A DNA stretch of 23,907 nt from a virus (lineage: Duplodnaviria; Heunggongvirae; Uroviricota; Caudoviricetes). Under the pieces are notes generated by a model that searched no databases, was not told the DNA's origin, and saw only the letters and a program-made list of their open reading frames with translations. Positions within the stretch are counted from its first letter, which is position 1, and every line of letters starts with the position of its first letter. This document shows positions 5,776-23,907 of this stretch, piece after piece. The DNA lies in IMG/VR virus record IMGVR_UViG_2711768040_000013. One strand, 5' to 3'. The translations under genes were made by a program, and so were the position numbers.

Positions 5776-6035
5776 GTAAAAATACAGCGTGATTTTATAT
5801 GTCTTTGAATGGATTATGCGAAGCACCTCTAAGGTAGATGAGGAGCAATAGCGTGTTGAATCAGAAGGCTAAATTGTATTGAATCGTTAGCATGTAATTG
5901 AAGGCAGCTATTTGATTCGAGTCATAAAAGAGCATCTATTTCGGTTAATAAAACCATTGCGAGTGACTTTATGTCGAAGCATAATTCATCTCGAGCGAAG
6001 TCTTGCTAGTCTTTCATCGGATTGATGACGGGCGC

Positions 6036-6066
6036 AAAAAAACCACCCTGGCAGGTGGTTTTTTTG
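6036..6066. terminator. Bidirectional rho-independent terminator
   Basis: AAAAAAACCACC-CTGGCA-GGTGGTTTTTTT: perfect GC-containing stem flanked by A-tract and T-tract; about 260 bp after the gene A stop. Confidence 0.75.
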
Positions 6067-6077
6067 TTTGAAGCATA

Positions 6078-6191
6078 CTAAAGAAAAATACTTACATGGA
6101 TATTACTGACGTTTACTGACAAACCACTCGGACTACCATATGGATAGCCAAAGAGGGCCAGAACGAGAATGCAGTAATAGCACTTCTTCAT
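6078..6191 (-). CDS. Small hydrophobic peptide (37 aa, MKKCYYCILVLALFGYPYGSPSGLSVNVSNIHVSIFL), function unknown
   Basis: ATG at 6191 with AGGAGG 4 nt upstream on the minus strand; stop about 12 nt before the bidirectional terminator; below the 60-aa track cut-off; hand translation. Confidence 0.3.
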   Translation of the reverse strand: MKKCYYCILVLALFGYPYGSPSGLSVNVSNIHVSIFL

Positions 6192-6847
6192 ATCGCCTCC
6201 TGTAAGCAGAGGGCAATTTCCGCCGATATATGCGCTTCTAAGGCGGAGTGACTATTGAGCGAAGTCTTGCCCTGAAATAATGCTCTGTTTAAACGCAAAG
6301 TGATCTGGCATATCACTGAACAGAGAACCTGAACAACACAACATATAGTATGTCGTTGTTTCTGGTTGCATTTTATGTTGTGTAATACTGGTTTTGCATC
6401 AAGGATGTTTGAGCTTTTTTTGATATAGCTCAAAGTAAAAAGCAGAGACTACGGATGATAAGGTCTTGAAAGCAATGTAAATTTTTTAAAGTTGTGAGTG
6501 GCTAGAAATGCACAGTTTCAATATGGCGGATTTAAACAAGTAATTAAAAATAGCGCCATAAATTCCAATAAAATCATTATGTTGCGTTTTCTGTGGAAAC
6601 TGCGGTGACTCTGAAATTTTCTTTTAGTGTCGCTGAGGTTTAACAACTCGCTGCGCAAGTAGTTAGTGTTTTTTTAACTCAATATCCTGATTTATAAGGT
6701 TTTTTATAAATCGTTGGCTGATTGCGCGTATTCATCTCGTGTTATCAGCAAAGATAAGCGCTATATGCAAAACTGAATGCATATATGATGTCGAAAATGT
6801 TATGGGAAAACGTGGATTAGTGTTATAGTAATGGCTGAAAAACAGCC

Positions 6848-6876
6848 TTGACATAAAATAACAACTGTGATATGGC
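6848..6876 (+). promoter_or_regulatory. Candidate sigma70 promoter for the peptidase gene (perfect -35 TTGACA, weak -10 near TATGGC)
   Basis: TTGACA at 6848-6853 with a poor -10 about 17 bp downstream, roughly 40 bp before the ATG at 6913. Confidence 0.3.
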
Positions 6877-6912
6877 TGTGCATACTTAACTTTTTTAACG
6901 TAGGAGGCAACC

Positions 6913-7398
6913 ATGAGCTATGCAGCTAAAAAACTGCTTGACCGCTATTGGGATCGCCGACTACCTGTCGATCCGTTTAAGCTTGCTAAAGCGTGGGGTG
7001 CTCGTGTTGAAGCACTTGAGGAATCGGCTTATAACAACGATGGGTTAAGCGGTCTGGCTGTCATCAAAAAGGGTGTCCATAGGATTTATTTTGATTCTAG
7101 TGAACATTCTAATCGTCAACGTTTTACTGTTGCACACGAGTTAGGTCATCATGTGCTGGGGCATACCCAGGACGGAGAGTACCATCGGGATAATGTCGGG
7201 AATTATTCAACAGGTGCTCGTGATTACCGTGAGGTTGAAGCAAACAAGTTTGCTGCTGAGTTGTTAATGCCTGAGTCTGCTATACGTCAATTGGTATCCA
7301 GAGAAGGTATTGATAGCACTTTGAGATTAGCAAGCATCTTTAATGTATCAGAAGCCGCTATGCATTGGCGCTTAAAGAGCTTAGGAATGGCTTATTAA
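6913..7398 (+). CDS. ImmA/IrrE-family (COG2856-like) zinc metallopeptidase, standalone
   Basis: HEXXH motif HELGH at 7135-7149 within FTVAHELGHHVLGH, followed by EVEANKFAAELLMPE as in ImmA/IrrE peptidases; AGGAGG Shine-Dalgarno 5 nt before the ATG; no HTH domain in the protein or in an adjacent ORF. Confidence 0.7.
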   Translation: MSYAAKKLLDRYWDRRLPVDPFKLAKAWGARVEALEESAYNNDGLSGLAVIKKGVHRIYFDSSEHSNRQRFTVAHELGHHVLGHTQDGEYHRDNVGNYSTGARDYREVEANKFAAELLMPESAIRQLVSREGIDSTLRLASIFNVSEAAMHWRLKSLGMAY

Positions 7399-7424
7399 TT
7401 AGCCTTTAACTTTTAACCTGTTTA

Positions 7425-7464
7425 AAATCACCTTTACGTTTGTACATGTAAGGGTGATTTTTTT
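7425..7464 (+). terminator. Hairpin plus T7 tract (terminator-like) directly abutting the next start codon
   Basis: AAATCACCTTTAC pairs with GTAAGGGTGATTT (13-bp stem, one U-G wobble), then TTTTTTT 7458-7464; the ATG of the next ORF starts at 7465 and its GGGTGA ribosome-binding site lies in the 3' arm. Confidence 0.55.
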
Positions 7465-8064
7465 ATGGCTGATATTGATTTATCTGGACAGTCCCCAGAG
7501 CAAGGAACCACTCCTAAGGGCGATTTAGATCCTGATATCCTTATAAGGCGAGATCGACGCGATGGTATAGAGCGTAGAAGTATGCGATTAGTGCTCTCTG
7601 CCGTTGTGCTTTGTTTTGCTTGTACATTTCTATGGCAGGGGCTTAACTTTGCTTTGGCTGTTGGAAATGGCTTGCTGGAAGCGAAAAGCAGTATTGCCAC
7701 AGCGATAACACAAAAAGTAGATGCACAAACTTGTGTTTCAGCAGAAAAATGTTCTGCTTTATCTGCGGATCCGAAGATGGCTGATGAGAGGATAACACCA
7801 TCTTCAGACACTAATAAAGTTAGAAAATCTATTTCTGGTTTATCCACCGATTGGTTATCGGCCAGTTCTCTAATAGCTATTGTTGCATTCATCCTTGGTG
7901 TGGGTTTAACTTTGCTTTTGACTCTTCTTAAATCAGCATTTCAACACCCGACAGATAAAGACTTTAGAACAAAGTCGACATCTAATACTATTGAGTTGGC
8001 CACGCCAATCAGTGAATTAATAATTGGTGTTCTGAATATAATTAAAGACAAACTATCTAAGTAA
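7465..8064 (+). CDS. Membrane protein with two predicted transmembrane segments (199 aa), function unknown
   Basis: Hydrophobic stretches LVLSAVVLCFACTFLWQGLNFALAV and LIAIVAFILGVGLTLLLTLL; basic N-terminus (RRDRRDGIERR); start uncertain (internal ATG at 7582 possible). Confidence 0.55.
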   Translation: MADIDLSGQSPEQGTTPKGDLDPDILIRRDRRDGIERRSMRLVLSAVVLCFACTFLWQGLNFALAVGNGLLEAKSSIATAITQKVDAQTCVSAEKCSALSADPKMADERITPSSDTNKVRKSISGLSTDWLSASSLIAIVAFILGVGLTLLLTLLKSAFQHPTDKDFRTKSTSNTIELATPISELIIGVLNIIKDKLSK

Positions 8065-8106
8065 AGCATTAGTTGTGATTTTTTATTGGTTTTAGTGATA
8101 ATACAT

Positions 8107-8140
8107 CTCCAGTACTTATTGCTACTGGAGAGTATTTTTA
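8107..8140 (+). terminator. Hairpin CTCCAGTA-N8-TACTGGAG plus T-rich tail between convergent genes
   Basis: Perfect 8-bp inverted repeat 8107-8114 / 8123-8130 followed by AGTATTTTTA. Confidence 0.45.
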
Positions 8141-8146
8141 GTCGTT

Positions 8147-9088
8147 TTATATTTTTAATGTTAGTGAATGATATTCACGAGAGTTCACGTTCGATGTGAT
8201 GTAATCGGGGGCGTTAACACCAAGAATCGCAACGAGCAATCGGCAAATTAAAGCCTGCATTTGTTGTAATATGTCATCTCCATATTGATAATTGTTAATA
8301 GTGGTAAAGCCAAGTGGTTGACCATGAAACATAGCTTCATGAAAGTTTTCATTGCGGATGTTTGTAATGTTTTTTTTGCCTGTAACCCATGATGGTCGTG
8401 GTATGCCATAAGTTTTGCAGATCCACTTCAAGCGCCTGGAGTGATTTAGAGTCTTTTCTGTACACTTGTTCTTTTCTGCCCATGTTAAAGCAAAGCAACT
8501 ATCCAGTGCCATATAAAGATACTGGAATTTTTCGAAGCTAAGGTATTGTGGGTTTTGGGATAAAAATAGTGCATGCACTATTGCTGCTATATTTATTGGT
8601 GCGTGTTTGGTTTTTTTCTCGCTAGACATGTATTTGAGTGCTAATTCTATAACCTCTTTTTCAGAGCACTTGACCAGAATAAAGTCAGTTAATTTGCTGG
8701 GTTTTATTGGGGTTGCGTCTAAAAAACCGGCATCAGTAGTTGTTAATCTTATCCCTTTGAAAAAAGACAGACACCACACAGCAAAATTGAGAGTTTCTAG
8801 TGAAGATGTATTTTTTAATTTTAGTGAGTGTGTTTTGGGTAAGCCAAATACTCGTTGGCTAAAAGGCATTGTGGATATGCCTCCATTGAGGTTATATACT
8901 TCTTGGTTTCCTGGGTATATCCAACCGTTAATAACATTTCTGTGATTGTTTATAAGATTTGTTTTTTCCGCTAGACCGGGTAAAGTAAGTAAAGAAAAAT
9001 CATCAGTTTCAACGTTAACCTCTACTGGATAGTATCCAAACTCAGCTTCAATATCATTGGATTGCTGTTCGTCAACTTTACCTTGCAT
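8147..9088 (-). CDS. Hypothetical 313-aa protein with C-terminal HEPN-like RNxxxH motif (candidate abortive-infection RNase)
   Basis: Long ORF in visibly AT-rich DNA; GGAG Shine-Dalgarno 6 nt before the ATG at 9088; R245-N-E-N-F-H250 encoded at 8339-8356 fits the Rx4-6H HEPN signature; no P-loop; otherwise not recognised. Confidence 0.6.
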   Translation of the reverse strand: MQGKVDEQQSNDIEAEFGYYPVEVNVETDDFSLLTLPGLAEKTNLINNHRNVINGWIYPGNQEVYNLNGGISTMPFSQRVFGLPKTHSLKLKNTSSLETLNFAVWCLSFFKGIRLTTTDAGFLDATPIKPSKLTDFILVKCSEKEVIELALKYMSSEKKTKHAPINIAAIVHALFLSQNPQYLSFEKFQYLYMALDSCFALTWAEKNKCTEKTLNHSRRLKWICKTYGIPRPSWVTGKKNITNIRNENFHEAMFHGQPLGFTTINNYQYGDDILQQMQALICRLLVAILGVNAPDYITSNVNSREYHSLTLKI

Positions 9089-20653: not shown

Positions 20654-21257
20654 TTCGCGCCTGCTGCCGACCGGCTCATCACTGCTTGAAGTCGCTGCCG
20701 CAAAAGCCTGTGCGGAAATTGAAAAAACACCGGTCAGTATTCGTGAGCTGTGGAACCCGGACACCTGTCCGGCAAATCTGTTGCCGTGGCTGGCGTGGGC
20801 GTTTTCGGTTGACCGCTGGGATGATAAGTGGCCGGAAGTGACAAAACGCGCTGTTATCCGCGATGCGTATTTCATTCACTGCCATAAGGGCACTATTGGT
20901 GCGATTCGCCGTGTGGTGGAGCCGCTCGGCTATCTGATTGAGGTGAGGGAGTGGTGGCAGCTCAACGAGGAGCCGGGGACGTTCCGCATCGTTGTTGGCG
21001 TGCTTGAGCAGGGTATTACCGAGGAAATGTATCAGGAGCTGGAGCGTCTCGTTGCTGATGCAAAACCTGCAAGCCGCCATCTGACGGGACTGGCTATCAG
21101 TTTAAGTACAACCGGCAACATTTTTGCCGGTGCGGGATGCTATCACGGTGACGCCCTGACGGTTTATCCCTACACCCCGGAGGCCATTATTGTCGGAGGG
21201 GATTATTTCCCGGCCTCGGCCATTCATTTAATTGATAACCTGAGAGTAAACGCATGA
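20646..21257 (+). CDS. I: Baseplate/tail-fibre attachment protein I
   Basis: 203 aa; N-terminal two-thirds resemble P2 I as recalled, C-terminal part differs and is longer than my recollection of P2 I. Confidence 0.8.
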   Translation: MSDSRLLPTGSSLLEVAAAKACAEIEKTPVSIRELWNPDTCPANLLPWLAWAFSVDRWDDKWPEVTKRAVIRDAYFIHCHKGTIGAIRRVVEPLGYLIEVREWWQLNEEPGTFRIVVGVLEQGITEEMYQELERLVADAKPASRHLTGLAISLSTTGNIFAGAGCYHGDALTVYPYTPEAIIVGGDYFPASAIHLIDNLRVNA

Positions 21258-22390
21258 CAGTGAAATACTACGCCATTCTGACTAATCAGGGCGCAGCACG
21301 GCTGGCTAACGCGACGATGCTCGGCAGTAAGCTGAATCTGACGCAAATGGCCGTTGGTGATGCGAATGGTGTCTTGCCGACACCAGACCCGGCACAGACA
21401 AAACTGATTAACCAGAAACGCATTGCGCCGCTGAATCTTCTGAGTGTTGACCCGAACAACCAGAGCCAGATTATTGCGGAGCAAATCATCCCTGAGAACG
21501 AGGGCGGATTCTGGATCCGTGAGATTGGGCTTTATGATGATGAAGGCGTACTCATTGCGGTGGCGAACTGCCCGGAAACGTACAAACCGCAGTTGCAGGA
21601 AGGCAGTGGTCGTACCCAGACTATCCGCATGATTCTGGTTGTCACGAATACCGAAGCTATCACGCTGAAAATCGACCCGTCGGTGGTACTGGCGACCCGT
21701 AAATACGTGGATGATGAAGTCCTGGAATTAAGGCTGTATGTGGATGACCAGATGAGAAACCACATTGCCGCACAGGATCCTCATACCCAGTATGCGCAGA
21801 AACATAATCCGACATTTACCGGAGAACCAAAAGCGCCGACGCCTGCCGCAGGAAATAACACCACGCGGATTGCGACCACTGCGTTTGTTCAGGCTGCTAT
21901 TACCGCTATGATTAACGGTGCGCCTGCCACGCTGGATACACTGAAAGAAATTGCCGCAGCCATTAACAATGACCCGAAATTCAGCACCACCATTAACAAT
22001 GCGCTGTCAGGTAAGCAGCCACTGGATGAGACGCTGACTCATTTGAGTGGAAAGGATGTTGCCGGTCTTCTCGCATACCTTGGTTTGGGAGAAGCGGCAA
22101 AACGGGATGTGGGGACAGGGGAAAATCAGATACCGGACATGGCTTCTTTTGCCAGTGGTGATGGATGGATGAAATTACCCAACGGGAAAATCCTGCAATA
22201 TGGTCGTGGTGCGGTTACGCCGACATTATCGACGCAAACAATGAGAATTACATTCAGCATCCCTTTCCCCAAAAAAGCGGACTGCGCCATGCTTACTCAT
22301 TCTGGTGATGGCGGTGCGCCTTTAGGCGCTGGGCGAGGGTTCGTGATGACTGCAGAAGGCCCAACGTTAACCGGCTTTGTTGGTGAGTAA
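21254..22390 (+). CDS. H: Tail fibre protein H (conserved N-terminal part plus currently expressed variable C-terminus)
   Basis: 378 aa; N-terminus resembles P2 H as recalled up to about ...LAYLGLGE, then diverges and is much shorter than P2 H. Confidence 0.85.
   Translation: MTVKYYAILTNQGAARLANATMLGSKLNLTQMAVGDANGVLPTPDPAQTKLINQKRIAPLNLLSVDPNNQSQIIAEQIIPENEGGFWIREIGLYDDEGVLIAVANCPETYKPQLQEGSGRTQTIRMILVVTNTEAITLKIDPSVVLATRKYVDDEVLELRLYVDDQMRNHIAAQDPHTQYAQKHNPTFTGEPKAPTPAAGNNTTRIATTAFVQAAITAMINGAPATLDTLKEIAAAINNDPKFSTTINNALSGKQPLDETLTHLSGKDVAGLLAYLGLGEAAKRDVGTGENQIPDMASFASGDGWMKLPNGKILQYGRGAVTPTLSTQTMRITFSIPFPKKADCAMLTHSGDGGAPLGAGRGFVMTAEGPTLTGFVGE
22068..22093. repeat. Candidate 26-bp serine-invertase crossover site inside H: TTCTCGCATACC-TT-GGTTTGGGAGAA
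   Basis: Near-palindromic half-sites around a central TT; centre ACCTTGGTTT resembles hix/gix/cix-type sites as recalled; the right half-site is repeated inverted at the window end. Confidence 0.55.
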
Positions 22391-22410
22391 TTTTATTCAG
22401 GGTGATTTAT

Positions 22411-22854
22411 ATGAACGAATATGTTTATAGCGCAAGGCATAATGCTTTTTTCCCTGTGGATATGATTGATAAATATAAATCAGAGGGATGGGATTTATCA
22501 GACGCTAAGGAAGTAAATCAAAATATTATCAGTGAGTTTATGGCTGAACCGCCACAAGGAAAAATCCGTATTGCCGGAGATGATGGGCTGCCTGCGTGGG
22601 CAGATATTCCTCCACCCACGCATGAAGAGCTTATTGAAATTACTGAATCAGAAAGACAGCTACTAATTAACCAGGCCAACGAATACATGAACAGTAAGCA
22701 ATGGCCCGGTAAAGCCGCTATTGGTCGTCTGAAAGGTGAGGAACTGGCGCAATATAATTTGTGGCTGGATTATCTGGATGCACTGGAGCTGGTTGATACC
22801 TCCAGTGCGCCAGATATTGAATGGCCTACGCCTCCGGCAGTTCAGGCCAGATGA
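22411..22854 (+). CDS. Tail fibre assembly chaperone (Tfa/gpG/U-like)
   Basis: About 147 aa from ATG 22411 (track starts at an upstream GTG 22402); C-terminal motif ...LWLDYLDALELVDTSSAPDIEWP is shared with the oppositely oriented tfa copy. Confidence 0.8.
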   Translation: MNEYVYSARHNAFFPVDMIDKYKSEGWDLSDAKEVNQNIISEFMAEPPQGKIRIAGDDGLPAWADIPPPTHEELIEITESERQLLINQANEYMNSKQWPGKAAIGRLKGEELAQYNLWLDYLDALELVDTSSAPDIEWPTPPAVQAR

Positions 22855-23428
22855 CATCCGGCGCGGTGCTGGTATCTGTTGCCGTCACCGCGTCAATGTA
22901 ATCCAGCACAGCGTTAAGTCTGGTTGTTTCTGCCTGCGTCAGTTTACGTCCGGCCTGCAATTTCAGTTGAATCAGACTGATGGAAGCCATTGCTGCATCA
23001 ATCAGTGACTGGCGCTGTGCTTCTGCCGATTCTACTGCGGCACCGTGTTGTGCCTCAGTATCTGTCACCCATTTTTCACCATCCCATTTATCGTATGGCG
23101 TTAACGGGGCGATAGTGGTTGTATTTTCGGGATAGTCGCCTAGTGCTGTTATTTCTTTGGCATCTCCCGTTTCGGTGTTATAGATGATTTCACCGCGATT
23201 GTCTGACACATATTCCCATGATTTTAAATCCACAGAACGGCAAATTGTATAACCAGCCTTAGATGTACCAGGAGCGTCTAAACAGGAATATGCTGGAATA
23301 CCGACACCCACTGCAAGATATTCAGTTGATGCAGAAATATATTCCCGCGTCTCACCATCATAGTTATAGACGGTAATATTCCCCGCCTTCGTGGCAATAA
23401 GCTCGCTATTTAATACGGCGTTATCCAT
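22826..23428 (-). CDS. Tail fibre assembly chaperone, alternative copy (U'-like) on the opposite strand
   Basis: 200 aa; C-terminal motif ...LNAVLDYIDAVTATDTSTAPDVIWP matches the plus-strand tfa; 3' ends of the two tfa genes overlap tail-to-tail by 29 bp. Confidence 0.8.
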   Translation of the reverse strand: MDNAVLNSELIATKAGNITVYNYDGETREYISASTEYLAVGVGIPAYSCLDAPGTSKAGYTICRSVDLKSWEYVSDNRGEIIYNTETGDAKEITALGDYPENTTTIAPLTPYDKWDGEKWVTDTEAQHGAAVESAEAQRQSLIDAAMASISLIQLKLQAGRKLTQAETTRLNAVLDYIDAVTATDTSTAPDVIWPELPEA

Positions 23429-23907
23429 TATGCAGCCCTCACGATAAAGTTAAATGCAATATTTCGTGGACGGGTTTCACTCCCGCCAGTATTACCGATA
23501 CTCCCTCGTGAATGAAGTGTCGGTGATGGGATCAGGCTCCCTCCTGTATTTGTGGCATCAAGTCCTCGCCCTTGTGTGTATGTTTTTTTGAAAATCGTAG
23601 CCAGTTCCCATTCATCTTTCGTGTCGTAACCATCATTGGCAACAACAATATGACGGTGTTTTTCCAGCATTCCTGCCTGAATACTCAATAAAACACGTCC
23701 TGCATCAATACCGCGCCCGTCATCCCAGCCACGAATAAATTCACCTCGTAAATCAGGCAATTTATTTGTCGGGTAAGCCTTTGCCAGTTCCGGGTATTCT
23801 TCAGCAGAAAAAGCCGCACCGTTGCATTTCAGCCAGCCTGTTGGAGGTGTCTCTGAAGGCCACGGAACAGGCGCACCAACAGGTAATGCAGAACCTTCTC
23901 CCAAACC
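23428..23907 (-). CDS. Alternative tail-fibre C-terminal receptor-binding segment (Sv'-like), 5' end outside window, no start of its own
   Basis: Open frame to the window edge; ends ...RNIAFNFIVRAA, like the Mu S / P1 S fibre C-terminus as recalled; its stop overlaps the tfa' start (TAATG); its first in-window codons (L-G-E) are encoded by the inverted repeat. Confidence 0.7.
   Translation of the reverse strand, partial: GLGEGSALPVGAPVPWPSETPPTGWLKCNGAAFSAEEYPELAKAYPTNKLPDLRGEFIRGWDDGRGIDAGRVLLSIQAGMLEKHRHIVVANDGYDTKDEWELATIFKKTYTQGRGLDATNTGGSLIPSPTLHSRGSIGNTGGSETRPRNIAFNFIVRAA
23895..23907. repeat. Partial right crossover site (reverse complement of GGTTTGGGAGAAG), truncated by the window end
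   Basis: Plus-strand 23895-23907 CTTCTCCCAAACC is the exact reverse complement of 22082-22094. Confidence 0.55.

Follow-up and report, generated by a model that had tools for sequence, protein, structure and literature searches.

The tail-fibre locus at the right end of the window, by which is meant the whole stretch of 23,907 nucleotides that was analysed, raises the question of whether a P2-like phage exchanges the tip of its fibre by DNA inversion. A sequence-only reading had proposed an invertible host-range segment here, from a short repeat present in the fibre gene H and, inverted, in the last bases of the window. The region is very probably a Din-type (Hin/Gin/Cin/Pin) site-specific inversion switch with two states, set among the tail-fibre genes of a complete P2-like E. 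coli prophage.

The P2-like assignment is based on the RefSeq annotation of a near-identical prophage, on comparison with P2 (NC_001895) and on the 94.6% identity of the fibre region to the Peduovirus pro483. The prophage is complete from int to ogr and is inserted between cpxP and fieF. Its genes follow the order int, C, cox ... A, then Q, P, O, N, M, L, X, Y, K, lysABC, R, S, V, W, J, I, H ... FI, FII, E, E', T, U, D, ogr. In canonical P2, H is followed by G, a terminator, fun(Z) and FI. The comparison with NC_001895 revealed no invertase in canonical P2, and no Din-type site was detected there by the same consensus scan as was applied to the window locus (see below). The idea of a module swapped into a P2 backbone, as opposed to the fixed H-G pair of P2 itself, thus holds.

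Crossover sites and coding modules of the segment

The sequence GGTTTGGGAGAAG at 22082-22094 recurs as its exact reverse complement at 23895-23907 (inverted pair I22), just as had been claimed. These are the only two copies of the 13-mer in the window, where 0.01 matches would be expected and none of 100 shuffles reached two. A repeat of 13 nt is by itself unremarkable in length, since 55 inverted pairs were listed in 4.9 kb; its weight lies in its position and content. The full repeat measures 15 nt (TTGGTTTGGGAGAAG). Both copies translate in frame as G-L-G-E, and the translations of the open reading frames bear out that two different C-terminal domains follow on the two strands.

The left copy forms the inner half of a 26-bp pixL-like site at 22068-22093, TTCTCGCATACC-TT-GGTTTGGGAGAA, whose central TT occupies 22080-22081. 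This site agrees with the Din-type consensus at 19 of the 20 specified positions, a quality for which about 0.085 matches are expected per shuffled window, and it is identical to the published pixL at 23 of 26 bases. It codes for L-A-Y-L-G-L-G-E, in keeping with the [N/Y]LGLxE motif common to Mu S, P1 S and e14 StfP; the annotated P1 crossover lies between the two central T's of the equivalent P1 site. On the right, the window stops inside the site, as had been supposed, just after the inner half-site TTCTCCCAAACC (23896-23907). The remainder, AA-CGTTTATGAAAA, was found past the window end in a near-identical chromosome. There the full site TTCTCCCAAACC-AA-CGTTTATGAAAA (positions 8705-8730 of locus L001) reads TTCTCCCAAACCAACGTTTATGAAAA, ends 14 nt beyond the window and puts the right crossover dinucleotide at virtual positions 23908-23909. 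It matches the Din consensus at 18 of 20 positions and agrees with the published e14 pixR at all 26 bases. The resemblance to hix/gix sites that had been proposed for the site in H is that of a true Din-type site, as judged by the consensus scan and the match of the pair to pixL and pixR. As is usual for Din systems, each site has 12-bp half-sites on either side of a 2-bp core. The core dinucleotides, TT on the left and AA on the right, are complementary, and the two sites are in inverted orientation. Exactly two sites at the locus reached the scan threshold of at least 15 of the 20 consensus positions; the same scan also picked up the gix sites of Mu, cixL of P1 and the pix sites of e14. With only these two sites at or above the threshold, a shufflon-like arrangement of three or more was rejected.

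The invertible segment (22082-23907) extends from the inner half-site of the left site to that of the right site. To its left, the constant part of H (21254-22081, plus strand) covers the first 276 aa, as far as the crossover dinucleotide. Pfam detects a Phage_tail_fib N-terminal domain in it (E 1.9e-62). This part shares 41% identity with the N-terminal portion of P2 H and 61-73% with repeats in the constant region of P1 S, and it is collinear in genomes of either orientation. As now oriented, H continues beyond G-L-G-E with AAKRDVG... into tip A (22082-22390, plus strand), a variable C-terminal part with a Gp53-like_C domain. Its cognate tail fibre assembly chaperone A (22411-22854, plus strand; 147 aa; Pfam Caudo_TAP, E 1.9e-31) shares 54% identity with e14 TfaP across the C-terminal 106 aa. 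The minus strand encodes tip B (23428-23907; Pfam Collar, E 8e-16), a silent alternative C-terminal fibre tip that has no N-terminus of its own, continues beyond G-L-G-E with GSALPVGAPVPWP..., ends in NIAFNFIVRAA and is 36% identical to the C-terminus of lambda Stf. The cognate, TfaE-like chaperone B (22826-23428, minus strand; 200 aa; Caudo_TAP, E 4.9e-32) starts at the stop codon of tip B and is named tfaE in some RefSeq genomes. The two chaperone genes, recognized from the outset as a tail-to-tail tfa pair, are both Caudo_TAP members and converge with an overlap of 29 nt.

When the segment was inverted in silico, H formed an open frame of 436 aa with tip B, followed directly by TfaB. In this flipped state, the constant part of H would run into GGTTCTGCATTACC..., and the right flank CGTTTATGAAAATGCAG would adjoin the reverse complement of tip A. 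An equivalent 439-aa protein of the flipped H is present in the annotation of TW14359. Inversion thus gives an in-frame H with its own chaperone next to it, and the exchange of tip and chaperone that had been claimed is confirmed at the level of the reading frames. Pfam places the two tips in different folds (Gp53-like_C for tip A, Collar for tip B), which makes it likely that they use different receptors.

The invertase and the state of the source strain

A serine recombinase of the Gin/Cin/Pin/Hin family had been expected close by, and it was found past the window end in the near-identical chromosome NZ_AP022036.1, which differs from the window by one mismatch, one 63-bp deletion and one 1-nt indel. 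The gene (L001 8786-9379, virtual window positions 23977-24570) is intact and encodes 197 aa, within the range of about 185-200 aa that is usual for Din-family invertases. It starts 55 bp past the right site and 69 nt past the window end, upstream of the tail sheath gene FI. The protein contains the Pfam domains Resolvase (E 7.8e-53) and HTH_7 (E 5.4e-13), aligns with the Mu Gin structures 3UJ3 and 4M6F (E 5e-94) with Ser9 in register, in the motif MLIGYVRVS(9)TNDQ, and is 78-80% identical to Gin and Cin. With NCBIfam profiles, the invertase matched only below threshold and the fibre parts not at all. In the source assembly, the contig stops at the crossover repeat, 2 nt past the window, so that the invertase is known from the near-identical genome. 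The adjoining contig of the source assembly (GCA_001269005.1) would be expected to start with (CTTCTCCCAAACCAA)CGTTTATGAAAATGCAGAG.

Tip A, the expressed tip of the window, carries a 63-bp in-frame deletion at about 22378. It is short by 21 aa in its C-terminal domain: of the 84 positions of the Gp53-like_C profile, the window matches 1-47, whereas the near-identical record matches 1-83. With these residues gone, one of the two switch states may not work in the source strain. The deletion is absent from all 12 of the best-matching complete E. coli genomes listed, the 473 remaining records being outside this count, and the exact deletion junction had no matches in GTDB representative genomes.

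These observations bear on whether the architecture could be a fossil, i.e. an invertible layout that no longer flips in the source strain because the invertase was lost or inactivated or the element is decaying, with the minus-strand genes as a silent remnant. The uniqueness of the tip A deletion with respect to the 12 genomes hints at relaxed selection, and the source contig stops before the invertase. Nevertheless, the rest of the 23.9-kb window is one mismatch away from NZ_AP022036.1, with its intact invertase, catalytic serine and both sites; the prophage retains the full P2 gene set, and tip B, TfaB and TfaA are intact ORFs. Moreover, if both orientations were present in the culture that was sequenced, the assembly could break at precisely this repeat. 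Loss of switching is accordingly considered very improbable, and the switch is presumably active in the source strain as well.

In the working switch that is favored here, the invertase encoded to the right of the segment would bind the two inverted 26-bp sites, one in H and the other at the start of the silent tip, make 2-bp staggered cuts at the central TT/AA and rotate the segment of roughly 1.83 kb. The late operon V-W-J-I-H would read the constant part of H with tip A (Gp53-like) and TfaA in one state, and the constant part of H with tip B (tail collar, StfE-like) and TfaB (TfaE-like) in the other. The late promoter would be the sole source of expression of the segment. A lysogen population would then release phage of two receptor specificities, and inversion would be expected to change the host range. 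This would amount to a standard bet-hedging device, with two receptor-binding tips on P2-like virions from one lysogen.

The switch may also depend on Fis and a recombinational enhancer, which in Din-family systems acts in cis, contains two Fis sites and typically lies within the 5' part of the invertase gene. In an ungapped alignment, nucleotides 19-90 of the invertase gene are 78% identical to the annotated P1 enhancer, whereas the remainder of the gene reaches 67%, a difference that coding constraint can explain; the same comparison for pinE gives 85% against 78%. No clear excess of third-codon-position identity over the gene background was seen in the putative enhancer region. As the identity, overall and at third positions, is not clearly above background, the enhancer stays putative. 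A promoter and terminator scan of the segment and the right flank was uninformative, with two promoter-like sites against 3.6 expected.

The right flank also holds a short leader ORF of 13 aa (MPVARYLCIFINV-GLGE; ATG at L001 8755) whose start lies outside the segment, both in the window element and in e14. The switch might mainly serve the lysogen rather than the phage: the tip on the invertase side would be expressed from the right flank and would mask a receptor against superinfecting phages, like e14 StfE2. In e14, a chimeric protein made by inversion is reported to block T2 adsorption (NAR 2025 study), and the identity of the sites would let the host PinE or PinQ flip the window segment too. 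The 13-aa leader, however, differs from that of e14 at 4 residues, the scan placed no promoter-like site on the right flank, and fibre switching is a straightforward role for a complete, apparently functional P2-like phage. Such a lysogenic function is thus given only a slim chance. The same holds for an extended version in which, on the ground of identity with the e14 pix sites, any invertase would flip any segment in a cross-talk network with host PinE, PinQ and e14, and lysogens would express the parked tip from the conserved short leader as a receptor-masking superinfection-exclusion factor; this, too, seems rather far-fetched. If superinfection exclusion were the function, the 21-aa deletion in tip A would leave one state of the source strain non-infective and perhaps specialized in defence.

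Natural inversion in related genomes

Both orientations occur in complete genomes of close relatives, with breakpoints in the site. Among 5,426 complete, mostly long-read E. coli genomes, 79 show the state of the window and 87 the flipped state. The ST2747 isolates CP007393 and CP007394 are 99.95% identical and differ by a clean inversion of exactly the 22082-23907 block, with breakpoints inside the 15-bp repeat. In this pair, a G/A SNP within the inner half-site is carried along by the inverted segment; the exchange therefore took place within TTGGTTTG, 8 bp that hold the central TT. Likewise, the same block is reverse-complemented between O157:H7 SS52 and TW14359, again with breakpoints inside the repeat.

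Two orientations might in principle result from RecA-dependent homologous recombination or from faulty assembly, with no dedicated invertase at work: inverted repeats can be misassembled, and draft contigs do break at this repeat. Nevertheless, the shared repeat measures only 15 bp, far short of what RecA recombines efficiently. Its position is that of a 26-bp Din site equal to pixR, next to a PinE/Gin homologue; the near 1:1 ratio of orientations was observed in complete, mostly long-read genomes; and the SNP confines the exchange to 8 bp around the central dinucleotide. In addition, inversion of the e14 P segment at the same repeat (TTGGTTTGGGAGAAGG) is measurable and depends on PinE and PinQ, with pinE pinQ mutants being locked (PMC12529663). 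An origin in homologous recombination or assembly error is therefore extremely improbable, and site-specific inversion by the neighbouring invertase is retained.

Two side observations concern the handling of such loci: short-read assemblies break at the crossover site, and PGAP wrongly calls one orientation a pseudogene. The switch is of relevance for host-range prediction, phage typing, phage therapy and genome annotation, and the 13-nt repeat combined with the logic of the reading frames sufficed to spot a truncated invertible host-range cassette from sequence alone.

Relation to known inversion systems

The locus had been likened to Mu G, P1 C and e14 P. This likeness stands for mechanism and layout, with the qualification that e14 P/PinE is closer than either Mu or P1. 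That system, the P segment of the cryptic prophage e14 of E. coli K-12 together with PinE, was described by Plasterk and van de Putte in 1985 (cited in PMC4272514). Its right site (pixR) is identical to that of the window element at all 26 positions, as are the inner half-site GGTTTGGGAGAA and the central TT. Identity is 86% between the invertase and PinE, 86% between TfaB and TfaE, and 60% between tip B and StfE. Both elements share the order fibre N-terminus, tip, tfa, convergent tfa', tip', invertase, and the segments are similar in size (1,797 bp in e14, about 1,828 bp in the window element). However, e14 is a defective lambdoid element whereas the backbone of the window is that of a complete P2-like myovirus. 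The constant fibre part of the window is P2 H-like, unlike that of e14, nothing in e14 StfP corresponds to the Gp53-like tip A, and the invertase is 13 aa longer at the C-terminus.

Mu G/Gin and P1 C/Cin display the same layout, with a constant S N-terminus and alternative Sv/U and Sv'/U' modules. As in the window locus, their invertase lies outside the segment and their 26-bp sites are located within the [N/Y]LGLxE coding motif. Their tips and chaperones, however, are unrelated in sequence to those of the window, and the phage backbones differ. The repeats are of 34 bp in Mu and about 0.6 kb in P1, against 15 bp in the window element. A Mu or P1 cassette transplanted into P2 was rejected, as tblastn searches of the G segment of Mu and the C segment of P1 with the tips and chaperones yielded no matches.

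In the p15B Min system and the IncI shufflons, inversion likewise yields alternative C-termini of adhesins or fibres. The Min sites belong to the same Din family as those of the window, while the IncI shufflons use a tyrosine recombinase. Both systems contain many sites and segments, in contrast with the two sites of the window locus.

Invertible fibre switches in P2-like prophages are already known and well documented, and the present switch opens no new question. In the P2-like pro483, Fels-2 (Fin), the EPEC E2348/69 prophages and an O157:H7 prophage, the cassette is likewise located between H and FI, with the invertase in the fun(Z) slot as in the window locus. An invertase is frequent in this P2 hotspot (bioRxiv 10.1101/2024.10.15.618418). 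The fibre region of the Peduovirus pro483 is 94.6% identical to that of the window (2,654-nt query, window 21254-23907) and has an annotated 'DNA invertase'. Tail-fibre inversion in Fels-2 is credited to fin (PMC7953296), and phase variation by inversion was demonstrated by WGS and PCR in the EPEC P2-like prophages (PMC4272514). One EPEC prophage has three repeats and produces four variants in a shufflon-like manner, whereas the window locus has two sites. Overall, the P2-like relatives differ from the window element by alleles only, the window copy being set apart by its 63-bp deletion in tip A.

Two fibre tips and their chaperones between inverted repeats

The 13-mer GGTTTGGGAGAAG at 22082-22094 recurs as its exact reverse complement at 23895-23907, at the very end of the window. 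It has no further copy in the window, 0.01 matches being expected, and two copies were found in none of 100 shuffles. Since 55 inverted pairs were listed within 4.9 kb, an exact inverted pair of 13 nt is unremarkable by length alone and its significance comes from its context. The left copy is held by the plus-strand tail fibre gene H (21254-22390, 378 residues, reading ...LAYLGLGEAAKRDVG), which combines a P2-type Phage_tail_fib N-terminal domain with a Gp53-like C-terminal tip, tip A (Pfam). The right copy opens a minus-strand ORF (23428-23904(+)) that reads (G)LGEGSALPVGAPVPWP...NIAFNFIVRAA and encodes tip B, with a tail-collar domain (Pfam). Two genes coding for Caudo_TAP tail-fibre assembly proteins (Pfam) are convergent and overlap by 29 nt: tfaA on the plus strand (22411-22854) and tfaB on the minus strand (22826-23428). 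The sequence-only reading had directly observed the repeat, both frames and the tail-to-tail tfa genes, all correctly. Its claim that inversion swaps both tip and chaperone is borne out by an in-silico flip, after which H is an open frame of 436 residues joining its constant N-terminal part (H-constant), GLGE and tip B, with a 200-residue chaperone directly after.

The expressed tip A carries a 63-bp in-frame deletion at 22378, within its Gp53-like C-terminal domain, relative to the near-identical record NZ_AP022036.1 and to phage pro483. The deletion takes out 21 residues (NSAYRTSSTSDTVSMNYSWWA) and the Gp53-like_C profile is matched over positions 1-47 of 84 with it versus 1-83 of 84 without it. 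A 1-nt T insertion lies nearby, at about 22391-22394. The deletion is absent from the 12 best complete Escherichia coli genomes listed and its junction occurs in no GTDB representative. Judging from the shortened domain, tip A may be defective in the source strain. Where the locus has the window orientation, RefSeq/PGAP splits an intact 399-residue H into an 'incomplete' pseudogene (390 nt) and a 'gp53-like domain-containing protein'; for flipped genomes the annotation gives one H protein of 439-441 residues. The pseudogene call is an orientation-dependent annotation artefact.

Crossover sites and invertase gene

The full extent of the exact inverted repeat is 15 nt (TTGGTTTGGGAGAAG). The left crossover site (22068-22093) is TTCTCGCATACC-TT-GGTTTGGGAGAA. 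The window is a P2-like E. coli prophage. Over its full length it matches the chromosome of E. coli WP3-S18-ESBL-09 (NZ_AP022036.1), the differences being one mismatch (within the initial 15,360 nt), the 63-bp deletion and one 1-nt indel. This chromosome reads on as CTTCTCCCAAACC/AACGTTTATGAAAATGCAG..., which completes a right site of 26 bp, TTCTCCCAAACC-AA-CGTTTATGAAAA. The left core dinucleotide is TT and the right one AA, as needed for inversion.

The locus was searched for matches to a Din-type consensus, at a threshold of at least 15 of 20 positions. Left and right sites score 19 and 18 of 20 and no other site in the locus reaches 15; chance would give 0.085 matches per shuffled window. 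The scan is validated by its exact recovery of the annotated Mu G-segment boundaries, P1 cixL and both e14 sites, and by the lack of any site in P2. The right site is identical to e14 pixR, listed as TTCTCCCAAACC AA CGTTTATGAAAA in a Din-family site table (PMC3241671), and the left site is identical to pixL at 23 of 26 positions. The proposed resemblance to hix/gix-type sites is therefore confirmed. The e14 P segment is reported with the same repeat TTGGTTTGGGAGAAG as here (PMC12529663). The site-encoded peptide is also conserved: LAYLGLGE here, LENLGLGE in e14 StfP, IQNLGLQE in Mu S and IQYLGLRE in P1 S.

Extension of the sequence, which had been suggested as a check, yielded the invertase along with the rest of the right site. 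In NZ_AP022036.1 a gene of 594 nt, with the annotation 'recombinase family protein', begins 55 bp past the right site and is followed by the tail sheath gene FI. Its product contains Resolvase and HTH_7 domains, matches Mu Gin crystal-structure sequences (E 5e-94, Ser9 aligned) and shares 86% identity with e14 PinE and 78-80% with Gin and Cin. The prophage is complete from int to ogr, between cpxP and fieF. Canonical P2 has at this position H, G, a terminator, fun(Z) and FI, with neither invertase nor Din-type site; the locus was therefore rightly read as a module swap in a P2 backbone.

Other cargo was observed in the old/tin-type P2 hotspot that separates replication gene A from portal gene Q (6913-9088) and contains three ORFs: a CapP-like ImmA/IrrE M78 peptidase of 161 residues (PADLOC capP E 1e-30, Pfam Peptidase_M78), a 199-residue ORF (7465-8064) whose membrane-protein look is judged only from hydrophobic stretches, and a convergent 313-residue ORF. 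Neither of the two larger ORFs is matched in Pfam or PADLOC. These ORFs may be uncharacterised defence or regulatory cargo. The preceding 1.1 kb or so (5776-6912), from the replication endonuclease gene to the peptidase gene, has no gene annotated in NZ_AP022036.1.

Natural inversion in related genomes

Queries of 2,654 nt were compared with 5,426 complete E. coli genomes, counting collinear matches that cover at least 80% of the query. The window orientation was found in 79 genomes and the flipped one in 87. Two genome pairs were compared base by base. O157:H7 strains SS52 and TW14359 have collinear flanks and a reverse-complemented interior, and their alignment blocks overlap only within the 15-nt repeat. 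The ST2747 isolates CP007393 and CP007394 are 99.95-99.97% identical and differ by the same clean inversion. In this pair a G/A polymorphism of the inner half-site (GGTTTGAGAGAA versus GGTTTGGGAGAA) switches sides along with the segment, which maps the exchange within TTGGTTTG, 8 bp holding the central TT. In P1, the annotation of the equivalent cix site puts the crossover point between its two central T's. Judging from these genome comparisons, which cover relatives of the source strain, the crossover sites are in use at the population level.

Two opposite-state copies of the P2-like fibre locus coexist in NZ_CP007392.1 (at 2.98 Mb and 4.98 Mb) and likewise in TUM11352, with one copy on the chromosome and the other on an 88-kb record. 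In the ST2747 prophage (NZ_CP007393.1, stretch L005 5240-5890, and the corresponding region of L006), roughly 600 bp of additional AT-rich DNA, with a minus-strand hypothetical ORF of 105 residues, separate the right site from the invertase gene; the outer half-site is also different (CGTTTTATGGAA). This DNA resembles a cargo insertion at the P2 fun(Z) hotspot. The source contig, CXXD01000016.1 (GCA_001269005.1), stops 2 nt past the window, at position 91226, which is the outer end of the 15-nt repeat CTTCTCCCAAACCAA. The crossover site is therefore where the draft assembly was interrupted, an effect that could stem from both orientations being present in the sequenced culture or from another, related prophage.

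As is established for Hin, Gin, Cin and Pin, dimers of the invertase would bind both sites and assemble a synaptic complex, aided by an enhancer to which Fis binds within the 5' portion of the invertase gene. Ser9 would then cut both strands of the core with a 2-bp stagger, and a 180-degree subunit rotation would invert the segment. Nucleotides 19-90 of the invertase gene are 78% identical to the annotated P1 enhancer, versus 67% over the remainder of the gene, which weakly suggests such an enhancer; third codon positions give no clear signal. A promoter scan was uninformative, and the P2 late operon would presumably express solely the module fused to H.

Relationship to known switches

Just past the window end (8717-8755 of the NZ_AP022036.1 stretch L001), a short leader whose ATG lies outside the segment reads MPVARYLCIFINV then GLGE and supplies the annotated ORF start of the silent tip. 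The same ATG exists in e14, with the leader MPFACYFFIFINV, and an e14 chimeric protein starting there was claimed to block phage T2 adsorption (2025 NAR paper). It is highly improbable that the present switch would act in defence, as e14 StfE2 does, and also take part in cross-talk between invertases.

The DNA that spans the tfa genes and extends to the end of the invertase gene is 86-88% identical to the tfaP/tfaE/stfE/pinE region of e14. The closest matches are e14 TfaE for TfaB (86% identity), StfE for tip B (60%) and the C-terminal part of TfaP for TfaA (54%); a counterpart of tip A was found in none of e14, Mu and P1. Tip B is a member of the broad tail-collar tip family, with 36% identity to the lambda Stf C-terminus and about 25% to T4-type short fibres. 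H-constant is 41% identical to P2 H and 61-73% identical to repeats in the P1 S constant region. The cassette is thus an e14-like switch of the Pin type, carried by a P2 chassis.

The locus of phage pro483 is the same, 94.6% identical and including a gene annotated 'DNA invertase', and invertase homologues occur in many Peduoviridae, among them Fels-2, whose fin is held responsible for tail-fibre inversion (PMC7953296). Two P2-like prophages of EPEC E2348/69, one with three repeats, were shown by WGS and PCR to phase-vary at such loci (Goldberg et al. 2014; PMC4272514), and a 2024 preprint describes DNA invertases accompanied by inversion of neighbouring genes as frequent at this P2 hotspot (10.1101/2024.10.15.618418). 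Given these reports, the finding is therefore the correct recognition of a known system and not a discovery.
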